Shown: positions 48,576 through 55,298, numbered from the stretch's first letter. The stretch: DNA of 64,000 nucleotides from Methanomassiliicoccales archaeon (GCA_038850735.1 JAWCLO010000002.1:105902-169901); one strand, 5' to 3'. Notes: generated from the letters alone by a model not told the origin. A program made the numbers and translations.

Positions 48576-49568
48576 AATTGAATATAAGTCACTTCGTTTA
48601 AGCCTTTGAACGCTAGGTAATTTCGGGGCGACAATTAAGTAGTGTTGGAGTGCAGCGCGCACGAATAAATTATGTGAATGAATATCCGATTCTTTACTCT
48701 TTTTCGGTAAAATTAATACAGGCCCGCAAAAAGGTTATTGAGATCGAGCTCATTGCGTTTGGTGAATGCCGGACGAATTTTGTGCGTTCCTGGTCTTTGT
48801 TCTCAATAGTAGATAACCATAGTATGTGACTGCGGAAGGGGGTCTCCTCTGGGAGATACTCTAACTGCAATTATTGCATTCACGCGAAAATATAGATTAA
48901 TTAGGCTATTTCATTCATACCTCCAAACCGCATTATCTTGGTTGGAATCCGCTCTGCGAAGGAATTTTCGACCGTGGCTAACTGGCCTCCGACCTTTCCT
49001 ATTTACGGCTCGAATAATTATTTCATACACAAAACTTCATCATTTTCTTCTAGCACGATTCATGTCAATAGAAAAATGGCATAACTCATTGATTTGAGCC
49101 ATTATTGGACGCTTTCGATATTATTATTTGGAAAAGTAACATAGATTAGCACTTCGCTGATTGATGCAAAACAAAAAAACAATGCTGATTATGGAACCAG
49201 TTTGCTTTGGGGAAAATATTGAATGCGCCATTGATTGCAGAAAAACTACGAGCATCGATGCAGAAGTTCAATCTATTAAATCTAAACGCTAAGGTATCAT
49301 TATTGACAATTTCATAAATTCATTGACCTGGCATAGAACTAAATAGGTTTAGCAAACTTCCGCGACTTACCGCCTTGTTTATTAAAACGCCTAAACAATA
49401 AAGTGATGAAATCGGCATTCGAGTATTCGCTGCTACTCTATCCGCAATAGATTAAAGGCCCTTATGCATTGTCATAATTTGCCGAAAAGAACATAGGGCA
49501 AACATATTTGAAACAGATTGCGGCCTAGCCATCTGATTCAGAATAAAAATTGTATCGAGGGGTGTCCA

Positions 49569-50039
49569 ATGAATAATGTAGAACTGGTTCTGGAAAAAGG
49601 ATCAACATATATCATCAAAGAAAAGACACCCAAATTAGCGTACCGCATTTTTTCCAATGCGATTGGAGACGGGGCTTCTGGAATCATCATAACCCGCATT
49701 TATCCTATAAAACTTAAGAAGCAATTTGAAATAGGTTCTTCAACGATATATTGGCTGACCAATGTAATAGCAGATATGGCACTTAGACCCAAAGATCTAG
49801 AAGAGTTGAGTTTTAAACTGGAGAGGTTCATTTCTACGCATGAAAACCCGATTGTAATTATTGATTGTCTCGAATACCTAATCACGAATAACGATTTTAC
49901 AACAGTCTTGAAATTTGTGCAATCAATAAGAGATCAGATTACGATAAGAAACGCAATTCTACTGATTTCTATTAACCCTCTAACATTGGATTCACATAAT
50001 CTTAAATTGCTCGAAGAAGAAGCGGATTATATCATTTAG
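49569..50039 (+). CDS. DUF835 domain protein (stand-alone)
   Basis: LEKGSTYIIKEK...GIIITRIYPIKLKKQFEIGSSTIYWLT...IVIIDCLEYLI aligns with the C-terminal half of the ORF at 1-783. The ATG at 49569 is preferred to the track start at 49518. Confidence 0.75.
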   Translation: MNNVELVLEKGSTYIIKEKTPKLAYRIFSNAIGDGASGIIITRIYPIKLKKQFEIGSSTIYWLTNVIADMALRPKDLEELSFKLERFISTHENPIVIIDCLEYLITNNDFTTVLKFVQSIRDQITIRNAILLISINPLTLDSHNLKLLEEEADYII

Positions 50040-50173: not shown

Positions 50174-50851
50174 TTACTCGATTCCAAGAATGATTCTATG
50201 AAGAACGTCGATCGTCATTCCAAGAATTCTGCCAGCGTCCTTTAGATGGTGATAAATCTCCCTTTTTTTGATTATGCCTATTGGATCGTCAGTTTCAAAG
50301 ATAGTACTCATTGATTCAATGTAAATCGTTTCAATTTTTCTTTCACTATTCCGCATCTTATGGATCATGAATTCAGGTAATTTCTCATTTCGCTTCATCA
50401 AGGATATCGCTTCTGCCAGAGTAGATGTTCCTTCATATAGACATTCAACCATCGTTACGATTGGCCCATCTGGGTTTATCCCAAACGCCTTCATTTCAAG
50501 TGCCGTAGAAAGCGAATAATTGAGGATATAATCCATCTGGCGGGAAATCGTGTAAATATCCTGCCTATCAAATGGTGTCACGAAACTTTCCATCAGCTTG
50601 CCTTCCATATCGTATCTCATTTCATCCGCTTTCTCTTCAATTTGCTGAAGTAGTCTCGGGGCATCTATCTCGCCAAACTTAACCCACTCCAAAAGCACAC
50701 GCACCCCCTCTAAAGTGATCTTCGCTTGATCACTGAGCATTTTGTAAAAATCATACCGTGGAGGAAACAAGACATCTACGATTTTCCCCCTTGCGCCGTC
50801 GCTATCTCTTCTCGAACTATTCTTTGCGTTCTTACGAAACATCATTGTCAC
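50174..50851 (-). CDS. DUF47/PhoU-like phosphate transport regulator (Pit accessory protein)
   Basis: YDFYKMLSDQAKITLEGVRVLLEWV and the helical repeat layout fit the DUF47 family. It lies immediately downstream of the PiT transporter. Confidence 0.8.
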   Translation of the reverse strand: MTMMFRKNAKNSSRRDSDGARGKIVDVLFPPRYDFYKMLSDQAKITLEGVRVLLEWVKFGEIDAPRLLQQIEEKADEMRYDMEGKLMESFVTPFDRQDIYTISRQMDYILNYSLSTALEMKAFGINPDGPIVTMVECLYEGTSTLAEAISLMKRNEKLPEFMIHKMRNSERKIETIYIESMSTIFETDDPIGIIKKREIYHHLKDAGRILGMTIDVLHRIILGIE

Positions 50852-50899
50852 CTAAGTAGAGATCCATCTCAATTCAAATGAATGAGTTATCACTTCCGC

Positions 50900-51934
50900 C
50901 TAAATGACGGTCAACATTAAGGATAATAAACCCGATATTAACATTGTGATGGGGAATGTTAATAACCATGAAACGAAAATTTCCTTCCCAAGAGTCCAAT
51001 CTACCATTTTTGCATTCTCTGCGGTGCCGATTCCGATGATGCTCGCAGAAACCACGTGAGTGGTCGATACTGGTGCTCCTGCAATCGTTGAAAATAAAAC
51101 TGCTGCAGTTGACACCGATTGCGAATTAAGGCTGTGTAGAGGTCCTATGCGGTAGATTTTTACTGCAAGCGTCCTTACAATACGCCACCCACCAAACATC
51201 GTTCCTACGGCCATCGCTAATGCGCATGCTAATCTTATACCGAGATGAACGTCTGATTGTACTAGAAATCCACTTGATGCGAAAACGATCATAATTATAC
51301 TAATCTGTTTTTGTGTGTCGTTAGCGCCATGACTGAAAGAAAGAAGACTTGCGGTTATCCATTGGACTTTTCGAACAGATTTGTTCGCGGAACGCGTCGA
51401 TTTCCGCAATACCATTGTTGTTGTCTTCATGAGCAGATAGCCACCTGCGAGGCCAACAACTATCGAAGTGGCAAGCAATACGAAAACTTTTAGAATACCA
51501 TCTAGAGAAGGCGATGGAGCCAAAACCGAATCAATACCCCAATTCAGAGCTTCGATTCCCCCTACAGGAATGGTTGCACCGATCAATCCGCCGATGAACG
51601 CGTGGGTAGATGATGACGGTAGTCCATACTTCCAAGTTATGATATTCCAAACAACCGCGCTTAATGTCGCACTAAATAGACATATCACGAGAAGTTGAGG
51701 ATGTGAAATAAAAGTTAGAGATTGAATAGTATACACCACAGCACTACCCCCAACGAGTGCACCGACGAGATTTGAAACAGATGCAAGTAATACAGCTTGT
51801 ATAGGCGTTGCTGTTTTTGATCCAATCAATGTAGCAATTGTTGAGCTGGCATCATGAAACCCATTTGTTGCACAAAAAAACAGAGCCAAGATTACTACAA
51901 TGAAAATGAAGACGACATTGACGGCGGATTCCAC
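50900..51934 (-). CDS. inorganic phosphate transporter, PiT family
   Basis: Contains TNGFHDASSTIAT and SHGANDTQK signature repeats in a polytopic membrane protein. The start is GTG. Confidence 0.9.
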   Translation of the reverse strand: MESAVNVVFIFIVVILALFFCATNGFHDASSTIATLIGSKTATPIQAVLLASVSNLVGALVGGSAVVYTIQSLTFISHPQLLVICLFSATLSAVVWNIITWKYGLPSSSTHAFIGGLIGATIPVGGIEALNWGIDSVLAPSPSLDGILKVFVLLATSIVVGLAGGYLLMKTTTMVLRKSTRSANKSVRKVQWITASLLSFSHGANDTQKQISIIMIVFASSGFLVQSDVHLGIRLACALAMAVGTMFGGWRIVRTLAVKIYRIGPLHSLNSQSVSTAAVLFSTIAGAPVSTTHVVSASIIGIGTAENAKMVDWTLGKEIFVSWLLTFPITMLISGLLSLMLTVI

Positions 51935-52133
51935 ATGAAAGTGATAAGTTACTAGTTATCTTTAGGATATCGGGATATTGAAGCATTCATCGTTTTCGAA
52001 TCTAACCATCTGCGCAAGGAATATCTGCAACTTTCGCTTAATTTAATCATTTGATTCTAATGATAAAGAGCAGTTTTCTTCGAAATTTCGAATTCCTCAA
52101 CTATATTTATGGCGAAAGCAATTGCAAATTCAG

Positions 52134-53099
52134 ATGAAGCGCGATGTTGTAGGTGTAGGAGCTCTTAACGTGGATTTCATTTATGAAGTCAATAGGTTAG
52201 TAGTTGCAGAGAAAAGTTATGTCCCAGGTTCAGAAATCTTTGAAGATAAGAGACGATTCCGTCGTGTGAAAGAAGAGCTTGATCAAACTGGTAAGCTTGT
52301 AAGAAGAAGCGCGGGCGGTTCGGCTGCAAATACCGTTTATGCACTTGCCAAAATGGGGTTCAAAACTGGAATTCTTGGTATAACTGGAATCGATGAATTA
52401 GGAGATTTCATACTTTATTCCATGAATGACGTTGATTACTCGCATGTGAAACGACTTGATGATACTGGCGTATGCTTATCTCTTGTCTCAAGAGGGGAGC
52501 GATCCTTGATCGTTTTTCCCAATGCAAATGACATGTTTTCTATTTCGATAGAAGATATTGGATATCTGAATGAGTCCCGAATCGTTCACATGAGTTCTTT
52601 TGTGGGAGACCGTGGATTGAATGAACAGAAGAAAATTGCAAAAGAACTGGATGCCGGCGTTATGCTTTCATTCGATCCGGGCGAAATCTACGCAAGAAAA
52701 GGTTTGAGAGCCATCAAAACAATTCTGAGACGATGTGACATTCTTTTCATCAATGAGAGGGAACTGCAATTGCTAACATCTAATGATGTTGTGGAAGGAT
52801 CGAAAATGCTTTTGGAGACAGGTCCTGAAATTGTTGCGTGTAAAATGGGAGAAAAGGGTTCGATCATTGTGACTGATACTGATGAAATCACCATCTCTCC
52901 AACCAATACAGTGGTTGTTGATAAAACTGGCGCAGGCGATGTCTACGATGCGGGTTTTTTGGCAGGAATCCTTATGGACTGGCCAATTGAAAAATGTGGT
53001 AATTTTGCATCTTTCGTCGCGGGAAGAAGCATCGCTTATTATGGAAGGGACGGGTATCCAGATAAAGATACGATAAAGATATTCGATGGCGTGATGTAA
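52134..53099 (+). CDS. PfkB-family carbohydrate/nucleoside kinase
   Basis: Contains VVGVGALNVDFIY, GGSAANT and the PfkB signature DKTGAGDVYDAGFLAG. The ATG at 52134 is preferred to the TTG at 52122. Confidence 0.85.
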   Translation: MKRDVVGVGALNVDFIYEVNRLVVAEKSYVPGSEIFEDKRRFRRVKEELDQTGKLVRRSAGGSAANTVYALAKMGFKTGILGITGIDELGDFILYSMNDVDYSHVKRLDDTGVCLSLVSRGERSLIVFPNANDMFSISIEDIGYLNESRIVHMSSFVGDRGLNEQKKIAKELDAGVMLSFDPGEIYARKGLRAIKTILRRCDILFINERELQLLTSNDVVEGSKMLLETGPEIVACKMGEKGSIIVTDTDEITISPTNTVVVDKTGAGDVYDAGFLAGILMDWPIEKCGNFASFVAGRSIAYYGRDGYPDKDTIKIFDGVM

Positions 53100-53945
53100 A
53101 TGGTATTGAAAATCGGTTGGTTTTCAACGGGAAGAGATGCGGCAGCACGCAATCTTTTAAAAACTATTGTGAAGAAGAAGGATGAGGGTTTTTTTGACAT
53201 AGAAATTGCCTTTGTGTTTTCAAATTGGGAAGAGGATGAGGATCCAACCCATCCAACATTTGAAGATCGCCGCAGATTTTGCAAACTGGTTCGGGGATTT
53301 GATATCCCGCTCGTTTGTTTGTCTTGGAAGAAATTTCGACCAGACCTCCGTCTAGAAAACAGAGAAAAATGGAGAAGTGCATATGGTGAAAAAATGAGAG
53401 AATTAATTTCTCCATTTCCTTTCGATCTCGGCGTTCTCGCAGGCTACATGCTTTGGATGGATAATGAATCCTGCAAAATCTTCAACCTCATCAATTTACA
53501 CCCGGCATTGCCAGGTGGGCCAAAGGGAACGTGGCAACAAGTTATCTGGCAACTCATGGAATCTCGGGCAGACCGACAAGGTGCGATGATTCACTTGTGT
53601 ACCCAGGAATGGGACGAGGGGCCTCCACTCACGTTCTGCTCATTTTCTCTGCGAACTGCAGAGTATGAGGTTCTATGGGAGCAGTTCGAAAGGAAGTTAG
53701 AATCGGTAACTCTAGCGGAAATAATGAGGACTGAAGGAGAAAATGAACCTCTCTTTGCAAGAATACGCAAAGATGGCGAGATTCGAGAGATACCATTGCT
53801 TGCATATACTTTGAAGTATTTCGCTGATGGCAAACTTAGAATCAAAGATCGAATGATTTATGAAAAAGAAAGACCTCTTGCTGGGGCGTATGATTTAACT
53901 GCGTTGGTGGATCACGCGGTTAAAACAAGAGAATTTGAGGTGTGA
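53100..53945 (+). CDS. formyltransferase-fold protein (PurN-like N-terminal domain, extended)
   Basis: KIGWFSTGRD...VLAGYM...LINLHPALPGGPKG...GAMIHLCTQEWDEGP matches the Asn/His/Asp layout of the PurN-type formyltransferase core. The ATG directly abuts the PfkB stop. Confidence 0.6.
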   Translation: MVLKIGWFSTGRDAAARNLLKTIVKKKDEGFFDIEIAFVFSNWEEDEDPTHPTFEDRRRFCKLVRGFDIPLVCLSWKKFRPDLRLENREKWRSAYGEKMRELISPFPFDLGVLAGYMLWMDNESCKIFNLINLHPALPGGPKGTWQQVIWQLMESRADRQGAMIHLCTQEWDEGPPLTFCSFSLRTAEYEVLWEQFERKLESVTLAEIMRTEGENEPLFARIRKDGEIREIPLLAYTLKYFADGKLRIKDRMIYEKERPLAGAYDLTALVDHAVKTREFEV

Positions 53946-53948
53946 TCC

Positions 53949-55070
53949 TTGGAATTCGACCTGCTCGACGAACTAATACCTGGTGAAAACAGGCAATTCG
54001 TTACGGATGGAGAGGGGCCTATTACCAAAAATGACAACGCTTTCGAACTTTGCGCGGCTTTTATTGAAAATGGGGAGAAATTTTTCAGTGTAATCAGCAG
54101 ATACGATGACGTGCTTAGTGATGTTTTTCATAGGCAGGGATACAAAGCGGGAGATACACTCCGCCTTATTCTTCCTTTTCTCAAAGCGTATGGAGTGACA
54201 AATCAGAAAATGATCGAATTTTCAAGATCCGACATATTGCTAGTACCTGGCGCAAAGCGTACGATGCGATTTGTTAGGGAGCTTATGCAGTCTTTCATTG
54301 TGAGTACAAGCTATGAACACTATGTGAATGCGGTGTGCGAGGCGATTGGATTCCCGTTTGAAAATACTTATTGCACTCGAGTTAATTTGGATTCCTGCAA
54401 GATTGACTCATGGGAAGAGAACATCTTGAGAAACTATGCTAAAGAAATCGCTTCAATGGATGTCATAGAAATTCCACCAAATGCGAAAAGACTAGAGGAC
54501 TTCAACAAGAAGGATGAAGAGACAATAAAAAGGCTCGACGAGATCTTTTGGGAGGAAATGACGGATCTCGCTTCATACGAGCTTATCCTCGAAGTCAATC
54601 CAATTGGTGGAGAAGAAAAGGCCGCGGCAATTCTAGATGTATGCAGAAGGACAGGTATTGGCATCGAAGATACCATGTATGTCGGTGACAGCATAACCGA
54701 TGTAGAAGCGTTTAAGATGGTAAGAGAGGCCGGTGGTGTCACGGTTTCATTCAACGGAAATTCCTATGCGGTTAGAAATGCAGAAATTGCCGTCCTATCG
54801 CACGACACCGTCGTGACCTCGGTACTTGCGGAAACTTTCTACAAAGGGGGAAAAGAATCCGTCTTAGAACTCGTTGAGAATTGGAATCTTGAGTACATCA
54901 GAAAAATGGGATATGTGCATGAATATCTGGTGAAAGAACTGATCAAGGTATTTCCGGAAAAACTTCCGCTCGTTGTTAAAGTGACTCCCGAAAATATGTC
55001 CGAGATCGCAGCACTTAGCTCGAAGTTCAGGAAAACAGTGAGAGGGGAAGCAATAGGCGCACTTGGATGA
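53949..55070 (+). CDS. HAD-superfamily-like protein (resembles proteins annotated EhaR)
   Basis: Contains the N-terminal FVTDGEGPITKNDNAFE and the late HAD motif MYVGDSITDVEAF. The TTG start lies 3 nt after the upstream stop, and no in-frame ATG occurs before residue 88. The EhaR resemblance is from memory. Confidence 0.6.
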   Translation: MEFDLLDELIPGENRQFVTDGEGPITKNDNAFELCAAFIENGEKFFSVISRYDDVLSDVFHRQGYKAGDTLRLILPFLKAYGVTNQKMIEFSRSDILLVPGAKRTMRFVRELMQSFIVSTSYEHYVNAVCEAIGFPFENTYCTRVNLDSCKIDSWEENILRNYAKEIASMDVIEIPPNAKRLEDFNKKDEETIKRLDEIFWEEMTDLASYELILEVNPIGGEEKAAAILDVCRRTGIGIEDTMYVGDSITDVEAFKMVREAGGVTVSFNGNSYAVRNAEIAVLSHDTVVTSVLAETFYKGGKESVLELVENWNLEYIRKMGYVHEYLVKELIKVFPEKLPLVVKVTPENMSEIAALSSKFRKTVRGEAIGALG

Positions 55071-55203
55071 TGCAACACATCCTGTACTCGCGAAAGCGAG
55101 ATAAATGATCTGGCTAGCCCGGAAAGATTTATTCTTAATCTTTGCGGATATTGATCTCGGCAATATATGATTATGCTCTGTAATCAGAACCCGGTAAGAA
55201 AAG

Positions 55204-55298
55204 TGCTCCGGTCGGGATTTGAACCCGAGTCTTCGGCTTTCTTTCGGAATTTATCCGTCGAAAGGCCGAGATGATTGTCCGGACTACACTACCGGAGC
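55204..55298 (-). tRNA. tRNA-Glu(UUC) with a 20-nt intron at the canonical 37/38 position
   Basis: The minus strand reads GCTCCGG-TA-GTGTAGTCCGGACAATCAT-CTCGGC-CTTTCG[ACGGATAAATTCCGAAAGAA]A-GCCGA-AGAC-TCGGG-TTCAAAT-CCCGA-CCGGAGC-A. This is the archaeal tRNA-Glu consensus. Intron CGAAAG pairs with exon CTTTCG, as in a BHB motif. CCA is not encoded, and a T-run follows. Confidence 0.85.

Follow-up and report, generated by a model that had tools for sequence, protein, structure and literature searches.

A stretch of 64,000 nucleotides (nt) of DNA from a Methanomassiliicoccales archaeon (GCA_038850735.1, JAWCLO010000002.1:105902-169901), hereafter called the window, hosts three tightly packed genes encoding a PfkB-family kinase (K), a PurN-fold formyltransferase (F) and a phosphohydrolase-like protein of the HAD (haloacid dehalogenase) superfamily (H). 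In which pathway may enzymes of these three classes work together? The best reading of the data is that the trio is a new three-protein variant of the step in which glycinamide ribonucleotide (GAR) is formylated, and neither a part of a hydrogenase nor a free-standing sugar pathway. It is moderately probable, in our opinion, that a widespread module of three proteins carries out this reaction, which is step 3 of de novo purine biosynthesis, and that K-F-H is its tetrahydrofolate-type version. The features of the locus, numbered from the first base of the window, are the following.

52102-52109, + strand: TATA-box-like TATATTTA, centred about 29 nt 5' of the K ATG, as read from the sequence
52134-53099, + strand: K, PfkB-family kinase of the EhaT subfamily, 321 amino acids (aa) from ATG, PF00294
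53100-53945, + strand: F, PurN-fold formyltransferase with three insertions, 281 aa, PF00551, proposed GAR formyltransferase
53937-53942, + strand: GAGGTG, Shine-Dalgarno-like hexamer with a presumed function, 6 nt 5' of the H TTG, within the end of F
53949-55070, + strand: H, HAD-IB-type protein of the AF1437/'EhaR' family, 373 aa, TTG start, motif I D-G-E-G-P

The three open reading frames (ORFs) are co-directional and span 52134-55070 on the + strand. Spacers measure 0 nt (K/F) and 3 nt (F/H), as the ATG of F immediately follows the TAA of K, and the TTG of H is found 3 nt past the TGA of F. A TTG at 52122 is in frame with the ATG of K, too. Homologues of each of the three proteins number from hundreds to thousands, and K, F and H are therefore real genes, not chance ORFs. 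Because its spacing to the start is usual for an archaeal TATA element, the TATATTTA box is probably a promoter, giving rise to a K-F-H transcript with little or no leader. To start H at a TTG is sound, judging from the sequence and its relatives. In this frame no ATG occurs before codon 88, which is past the D-G-E-G-P motif (residues 20-24), homologues align starting at residue 1 (MEFDLLDE in the window, MDFDGLEE in relatives), the GAGGTG hexamer is found 6 nt 5' of the TTG, and independent gene calls on three public contigs also give products of 321, 281 and 373 aa. The original prediction, made from the sequence of the window, that the genes form a single coupled unit, the third starting at a TTG, is thus borne out. 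K-F-H is one operon, and the tight arrangement recurs in seven other contigs of Methanomassiliicoccales, as well as in distant lineages, some of them bacterial-looking.

The sole domain recognized in F is PF00551 (35.6 bits versus a cut-off of 26.1, residues 78-177 only); the Ftr domains FTR and FTR_C were not found in the protein. F is collinear with E. coli PurN (PDB 1CDE/1C2T; EC 2.1.2.2) over the full length, and the ~70 extra residues correspond to three insertions, no domain being added. Residues N132, H134, D172 and E230, invariant in 18 F homologues, align with N106, H108, D144 and E173 of PurN, the last of which we take to be the ribose-binding glutamate. The AlphaFold model of F (predicted local distance difference test, pLDDT, 92.4) was compared to known structures by Foldseek. 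PurN structures are at the top (3tqr, E 1e-13, template-modelling (TM) score 0.84) and are followed by PurU; Fmt and sugar formyltransferases rank far behind (WbkC, 5vyr, E 4.5e-8).

F and PurN differ in several respects. PurN is ~210 aa long, F 281 aa. The N-terminal phosphate loop, G-x-G-S-N in PurN, is enlarged in F to S-T-G-R-x-x-x-x-R-N-L and includes two invariant arginines. Moreover, F is nearly always paired or fused with a HAD protein of the AF1437 family, and usually accompanied by a PfkB kinase, partners that canonical PurN does not need. The score of F on the NCBIfam PurN equivalog model TIGR00639 (38 bits) does not reach the cut-off of 150.1. F had been described as PurN-like yet divergent, and so it is; the further claim that it is too divergent to be a GAR transformylase is not supported as worded, since the protein is collinear with PurN, keeps the catalytic triad and the glutamate, and has PurN as top structural match. 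F would be the catalyst of the module: with Asn132, His134 and Asp172 it would formylate the glycinamide amine of GAR, the donor being N10-formyl-tetrahydrofolate, and yield formylglycinamide ribonucleotide (FGAR).

Domain searches with H yielded weak HAD family matches. In JGI annotations homologues are labelled 'energy-converting hydrogenase A subunit R'. The assignment of H to the 'EhaR' family is confirmed by these names and by the 37-39% identity (E ~1e-84) to Methanobrevibacter EhaR, represented by P0412 and P0464, encoded right after the eha polyferredoxin genes. The family includes AF1437 of Archaeoglobus fulgidus, deposited as a 'hypothetical protein' (PDB 1Y8A), which matches H by sequence (E 4e-38) and by fold (TM 0.93), and is 29-36% identical to it according to the structural and the sequence alignment. 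SerB-type HAD-IB enzymes, ThrH and MtnX follow it as structural neighbours. HAD motifs in the window protein are D20-x-E22, S119-T120, K224 and D247/D251, and among 128 representatives D20 is conserved in 106, E22 in 111, S119 in 115, K224 in 126 and D251 in all 128. A glutamate two residues past the nucleophilic aspartate is found also in enolase-phosphatase E1. In most lineages H has the appearance of a functional phosphoryl-transfer enzyme dependent on Mg. The hypothesis that H is an inactive pseudo-phosphatase was not adopted, because HAD motifs are kept in most members; such a role is possible for the variants in which the nucleophile is replaced by Asn or Gln. Replacements of this type are found in P0144 (M. 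luminyensis; Asn) and P0199, in which Glu22, Gly23 and Pro24 are invariant.

K matches PF00294 with 141.8 bits. The motifs G-x-G-A-L-N-x-D, GGSAANT, DPG and TGAGD are invariant, or nearly so, in 12 H-linked kinases from different lineages, and correspond to the pentose-binding (N-x-D, GG) and catalytic motifs of ribokinase-type enzymes. K is 31-48% identical to other H-linked kinases versus 22% to E. coli ribokinase (RbsK). Of the two E. coli sequences taken for comparison, PurN and RbsK, the former agrees with the PDB alignment at residues 64-150 and 172-194. K resembles a kinase acting on a ribofuranosyl compound, which would be phosphorylated at the 5' position. No NCBIfam equivalog cut-off was reached by K, the best score being 99 bits versus cut-offs of 300-500; ribose-1-phosphate kinases and ribokinase rank first, with ~87-99 bits. 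Assignment of a specific substrate from curated models failed, scores being far under cut-offs and PDB matches generic. Kinases linked to PurN-type F proteins feature an insertion of ~17 residues past the first beta-strand region (K residues ~36-55), seen in the window, in Methanomassiliicoccus and in the loci L091 and L121. Ftr-linked kinases are without insertion.

H loci were collected in two scans. In the first, one genome per species was considered, and the 80 loci closest to H were searched by tblastn. The second covered metagenomes, with AF1437 as seed for diversity, and together with targeted look-ups gave 171 H loci. Bathyarchaeia dominate the collection, so that locus counts overstate independence; counts over the 42 clusters obtained at 60% identity are fairer, and are themselves not fully independent. 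A library of representatives at 50% identity contains 643 H relatives. A formyltransferase gene is found within 2.5 kb from H in 24 of the 42 clusters (25 once the L111 locus is annotated), a K-type kinase gene within 4 kb in 23, and purine genes are present on the same stretch as H in 9. Genes of the trio type co-occur in other genomes, both with and without eha genes.

Loci of several lineages link the module to purine synthesis. The K-F-H order of the window was found in the first scan in the seven Methanomassiliicoccales contigs mentioned above, and occurs also in the distant L091, the H cluster of which bears the name Ca. Aerophobetes bacterium. Trio genes are embedded among purine genes in L121 (purL-purF-K-F-H-purH) and L101 (purF-purM ... 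H-F-K(-)-purH-...-purD). L116 is organized as purF-purD-H-K(-), and L092 and L093 feature F-H without K. The purD gene is immediately 5' of H in 66 of 67 Bathyarchaeia/Thorarchaeota loci. In 62 of these 66, H is followed by an Ftr-fold gene, K usually comes next, and purQ-purL converge from downstream. The order purF-purD-H-Ftr-K ... purQ-purL-purS-purM is displayed by a Bathyarchaeial contig of 1.46 Mb. The Bathyarchaeial module is hence located between genes for steps 1-2 and genes for steps 4-5, where a gene for step 3, the GAR formyltransferase, belongs.

The independent pathway originally envisaged, in which a sugar or nucleotide is phosphorylated, formylated and dephosphorylated to give a formylated compound other than a purine, for instance a cofactor or the precursor of a modified nucleoside, has to be confronted with these data. 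The three enzyme classes could make such a linear route, no purine genes are near the trio in the window, the score of F is below the PurN equivalog threshold, and sugar N-formyltransferases, as WbkC, have the same fold. The E-values of PurN structures are, however, five orders of magnitude better than those of sugar formyltransferases, and nucleotide-sugar genes were not found near the trio. In purine operons, F-type genes occupy the interval from purF to purH, in Bathyarchaeia H and K are found between purD and purQLSM, and the PurT-like partner of H described below resembles a GAR-specific enzyme. A non-purine product is hence improbable, and the notion of an independent pathway is not supported as originally worded, in view of the presence of F-type genes between purF and purH, and of H and K inside purine operons, in several lineages. 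The specific hypothesis that F is a sugar N-formyltransferase was rejected on the grounds of the higher rank of PurN and PurU and of the lack of nucleotide-sugar genes in the surroundings.

Fusions connect H to formyltransferases in an even closer way. P0308 is a 599-aa protein in which an F-type PurN domain is fused to H (L088, 1207-3006); the L088 contig is probably bacterial, because it carries RuvA/RuvB genes and a trp operon. In P0330, P0334 and P0390 (~900-961 aa), the fusion partner of H is a divergent ATP-grasp domain of PurT-like type. This domain matches the PurT model NF006766 (E 6e-9, 35 bits), has PurT (2czg) as best PDB match, and shares three collinear motif matches with PurT. 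PurT-like-H fusions are located at L089 (1200-4085) and in L103, L105, L107 and L132, and carry the JGI label 'EhaR'. Their context is uninformative, neighbours being restriction/modification and OLD-family genes. Loci hosting PurT-like and H sequences form three clusters, none of which (0/3) has a PfkB kinase nearby. PurT, a GAR transformylase dependent on formate and ATP, acts at the same pathway step proposed for F, but is unrelated to it in fold and formyl donor; a tblastn search with a PurT-like query detected no such gene in the window.

At L111 (2275-5422), a PfkB kinase gene is followed by a PurN gene (236 aa; PF00551, 73.8 bits, whole profile) and by H. This PurN is short and canonical-looking, and the partnership of K and H is therefore not limited to the long F-type PurN.

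H is accordingly partnered with formyltransferases of three unrelated folds, Ftr, PurN and PurT-like. We interpret the corresponding formyl donors as formyl-methanofuran or formyl-tetrahydromethanopterin for Ftr, 10-formyl-tetrahydrofolate for PurN, and formate plus ATP for PurT-like proteins. Since H is constant, and two of the three folds are those of known GAR transformylases, the common element is most simply the acceptor side, GAR/FGAR, and not the formyl donor, and the purine-operon contexts agree with this. In the proposed scheme, H, with its D-x-E motif, and K would be obligate-looking partners of formyltransferases and not of hydrogenases. They would be paired with an Ftr-fold, EhaS-type formyltransferase in organisms using methanopterin and methanofuran, and H would be fused to a PurT-like ATP-grasp domain in some lineages. 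We infer that GAR is the substrate formylated by F, and that the phosphoribosyl end of the same intermediates is the target of H and K.

The same set of genes may be accounted for in a different way. F could be an ordinary PurN, and K and H a separate purine-related pair, co-regulated with F but acting outside the formylation step, either as nucleoside kinase and 5'-nucleotidase, or in a bypass leading from ribose-1-phosphate through ribose-1,5-bisphosphate to ribose-5-phosphate, and thus feeding phosphoribosyl pyrophosphate (PRPP) synthesis. Ribose-1-phosphate kinases and ribokinase are the best NCBIfam matches of K, the PfkB family includes nucleoside kinases (for example MJ0406), and many 5'-nucleotidases are HAD proteins. 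Moreover, K-H genes with no adjoining formyltransferase were found in Methanomassiliicoccus, L097, L099, L100 and L116, and in Aenigmatarchaeota H is accompanied by a different kinase-like protein and by purQ/B/C/E, with no formyltransferase on the part seen. Every NCBIfam score of K is nonetheless far under the cut-offs, and a separate pair leaves unexplained why H is fused or adjacent to formyltransferases of three folds, and not to other purine genes, and why a dedicated Ftr paralogue exists. We regard this alternative as unlikely, though less so than a non-purine product.

The Aenigmatarchaeota locus L174 has the order purQ-H-AAA_28, the last being a P-loop kinase-like gene, and is flanked by purB-purC-purE. 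H and the AAA_28 gene (314-1926) have overlapping stop and start codons, and no PfkB kinase is found in the AAA_28 place. A possible interpretation is non-orthologous replacement of the kinase by the AAA_28 protein. No formyltransferase was found on the contig part seen, which ends 313 bases upstream of H.

The name borne by H homologues raises the question of the relationship with hydrogenases. In two Methanobrevibacter genomes, the eha cluster consists of ehaA...ehaO, two polyferredoxin genes, an H homologue, an Ftr-fold protein and a PfkB kinase, and is continued by a polyferredoxin and a CBS-domain gene. The original prediction had placed a kinase, a formyltransferase-like protein and EhaR at the tail of eha operons. 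This is correct for the enzyme classes, but the formyltransferase is not PurN-like, as the protein at the EhaS position carries PF01913 and PF02741, and hence has the Ftr fold. The Methanobacteriales EhaR-S-T genes and the window trio have in common the three enzyme classes and the tight spacing, and K is 31-36% identical to EhaT. They differ in the order (H-formyltransferase-K in eha, K-F-H in the window), in the fold of the formyltransferase, and in the attachment to a hydrogenase operon, missing in the window. Methanobrevibacter EhaS and the Ftr of the Bathyarchaeial purine clusters are 50% identical (328 bits), and each scores 141-201 bits against canonical Ftr structures. By these comparisons, the Ftr-type partner is a distinct paralogue of Ftr.

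Could the trio products belong to an energy-converting hydrogenase, as its subunits or as factors for its maturation? For Methanothermobacter, co-transcription of ehaR-S-T with ehaA-Q is reported in the passage of Kaster 2011 that cites Tersteegen and Hedderich, and the order is also found in Methanobrevibacter. In the window, however, no hydrogenase genes were found within 10 kb of the trio. Within the fetched stretches, ehaO, encoding the [NiFe] large subunit, is present at 5/171 H loci and absent from 166. The module occurs also in bacterial-looking contigs, and all three proteins belong to families of soluble small-molecule enzymes. A role in hydrogenase assembly or function is accordingly very improbable, and the earlier view of the module as independent of hydrogenase is upheld.

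Reading the trio as a GAR formylation module fits also what is known of the cofactors. Methanomassiliicoccales use the C1-tetrahydrofolate pathway, and methanopterin has no known role in them (PMC6147122). The PurN-type partner is found in Methanomassiliicoccales, the Ftr-type partner in Methanobacteriales and Bathyarchaeia, and we interpret this as an indication that the formyltransferase type follows the cofactor of the lineage. PurN and PurT have not been found in Methanobacteriales, Archaeoglobi and M. kandleri, the purine pathways of which are otherwise complete (Brown 2011, PMC3261824), and the GAR formyltransferase of Archaeoglobales and Methanobacteriales is still listed as unidentified (Chadwick 2022, PMC9012536). 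Methanobacteriales, as represented by the two Methanobrevibacter genomes, carry H-Ftr-K. Methanococcus (M. maripaludis) uses PurT, and the final genes of its eha cluster are described as encoding a CBS-domain and a lineage-specific protein, not the H-formyltransferase-K trio. The gap in PurN/PurT distribution and the Methanococcus pattern fit the hypothesis that H-Ftr2-K supplies the absent activity. Eha is thought to replenish intermediates of the methanogenesis pathway, including those withdrawn for biosynthesis, and the location of a formyl-draining purine enzyme in the Eha operon would make physiological sense.

It is tempting, and tentatively possible, to regard H, a formyltransferase and K as the long-missing GAR formylation system of folate-free archaea in its entirety, inclusive of the EhaS-type formyltransferase and of an ATP-driven coupling. 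The archaea concerned would be Methanobacteriales, Bathyarchaeia and possibly Archaeoglobi and Methanopyrus. The EhaS-type Ftr would draw the formyl group from formyl-methanofuran or N5-formyl-methanopterin, and the HAD/kinase pair would render the transfer ATP-driven, either by a dephosphorylate-formylate-rephosphorylate shunt or by another unprecedented coupling. 'EhaR/S/T' would then be no hydrogenase subunits, but a purine branch-point draining formyl-methanofuran, and this drain would explain why they ride on the anaplerotic Eha operon. The K-F-H set of the window would in turn be a tetrahydrofolate-adapted descendant of the Ftr-type system.

How a phosphatase and a kinase may bracket the formyl transfer is a matter of guess, and the following shunt, which we prefer to other chemistries, is offered as a doubtful one. 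H would convert GAR to glycinamide riboside, the formyltransferase would formylate the riboside, and K would re-phosphorylate the 5' position to give FGAR. The formyl transfer would in this way become ATP-driven, as it is in PurT, whenever a formyl amide of low energy serves as donor. Two facts speak for the shunt, the order purD-H-Ftr-K and the lack of K next to the PurT-like fusions, which are ATP-dependent. A precedent is provided by the riboflavin/flavin mononucleotide (FMN) route, in which a HAD phosphatase dephosphorylates the ribitylaminopyrimidine phosphate intermediate ARPP, and a kinase later re-phosphorylates riboflavin. Dephosphorylation of a ribose-derived intermediate by a HAD enzyme, modification and re-phosphorylation follow each other in both schemes, but the enzymes are not homologous to K and H, and the likeness is one of logic only. 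The succession of phosphorylation, formylation and dephosphorylation suggested by the original prediction survives as one possible chemistry; the reverse order fits at least as well.

Several observations weigh against the shunt, or against the assignment of the trio to GAR formylation as a whole. F keeps the PurN phosphate loop, with the two invariant arginines, which argues for a phosphorylated substrate and therefore against a dephosphorylation shunt. No PfkB kinase gene is near the PurT-like-H fusions, for which the shunt therefore needs a kinase encoded elsewhere. The nucleophilic Asp is absent in 22/128 H representatives, M. luminyensis included. K is directly followed by H, without F between, in six contigs including those of Methanomassiliicoccus spp., Methanomethylophilaceae have F-H without K, and H is alone in Archaeoglobi-like contigs. 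The Bathyarchaeial Ftr copy could serve the Wood-Ljungdahl pathway, too. The low score of F on TIGR00639 and the predominance of Bathyarchaeia among the loci point in the same direction. Finally, none of five pur-protein queries (0/5) matched in the 64-kb window by tblastn, and no purine genes are among the Pfam calls within 10 kb of the trio; the purine link in the window therefore rests on relatives.

Additional searches of H neighbourhoods were uninformative. The AF1437-like genes of Archaeoglobi-like contigs differ from H of the window in having no formyltransferase or kinase neighbours. Genes next to those in L094 and L095 are unrelated, and encode S-adenosylmethionine (SAM) synthetase, an Asn-synthase-like protein, a Sun-family methyltransferase, RNA cyclase and FMN reductase. 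Similarly, ten H loci lacking formyltransferase and kinase were annotated, and unrelated neighbours were found (THUMP/FtsJ, RNase HII, SelB, aminotransferase, NIF3, ThiF and others). No ZTP, THF or purine riboswitches were detected in 15 K/F/H loci with Rfam models at gathering thresholds.

If the assignment is true, a function would be provided for three orphan families, the EhaR/AF1437 proteins, the EhaT-type PfkB kinases and the EhaS-type Ftr paralogues, whose present annotations read hydrogenase subunit, generic sugar kinase or 'hypothetical', and a name propagated in KEGG and JGI would be corrected. There would be a testable candidate for the missing GAR formyltransferase of Methanobacteriales, Archaeoglobi and M. 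kandleri, and the anaplerotic role of Eha would be tied to the withdrawal of formyl groups for purines. A textbook step assigned to one enzyme would turn out to exist as a version of three proteins in many archaea, and also in contigs that bear bacterial hallmarks. In the open-access literature we found no papers linking EhaR/S/T or AF1437 to purines.

The surroundings of the trio are in part conserved. The 5' neighbours of K, divergent from it, are genes for a PHO4-family phosphate transporter (344 aa) and a PhoU-like PhoU_div protein (223-225 aa), located at 50174-51934 on the - strand. This arrangement is kept on 3/3 public contigs carrying the trio, and not in other clades. Upstream of the phosphate-transport genes, a DUF835 protein of 156-173 aa, according to the start chosen, is encoded at 49518-50039 on the + strand. 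The 3' neighbours of the trio include genes for eIF-1A, Rio1, a KH protein and Pus10, and further genes. In L175 (6174-8122), from a rumen Methanomethylophilaceae, the synteny of the window is kept as F-H-eIF1A-Rio1-KH-Pus10-L21e-Rpb4, K is missing, an Archease gene is found directly 5' of F, and H is 30% identical to H of the window. A tRNA gene, convergent with the trio, had been noticed just downstream.

55203-55298, - strand: tRNA-Glu(UUC) with a 20-nt intron, identified by ARAGORN with intron search

ARAGORN in default mode reports tRNA-Arg(tcg), which was rejected as an artefact of disregarding the intron. With the intron search the tRNA is indeed tRNA-Glu, as originally reported; the gene spans 96 nt, and the intron occupies the canonical site in the anticodon loop.

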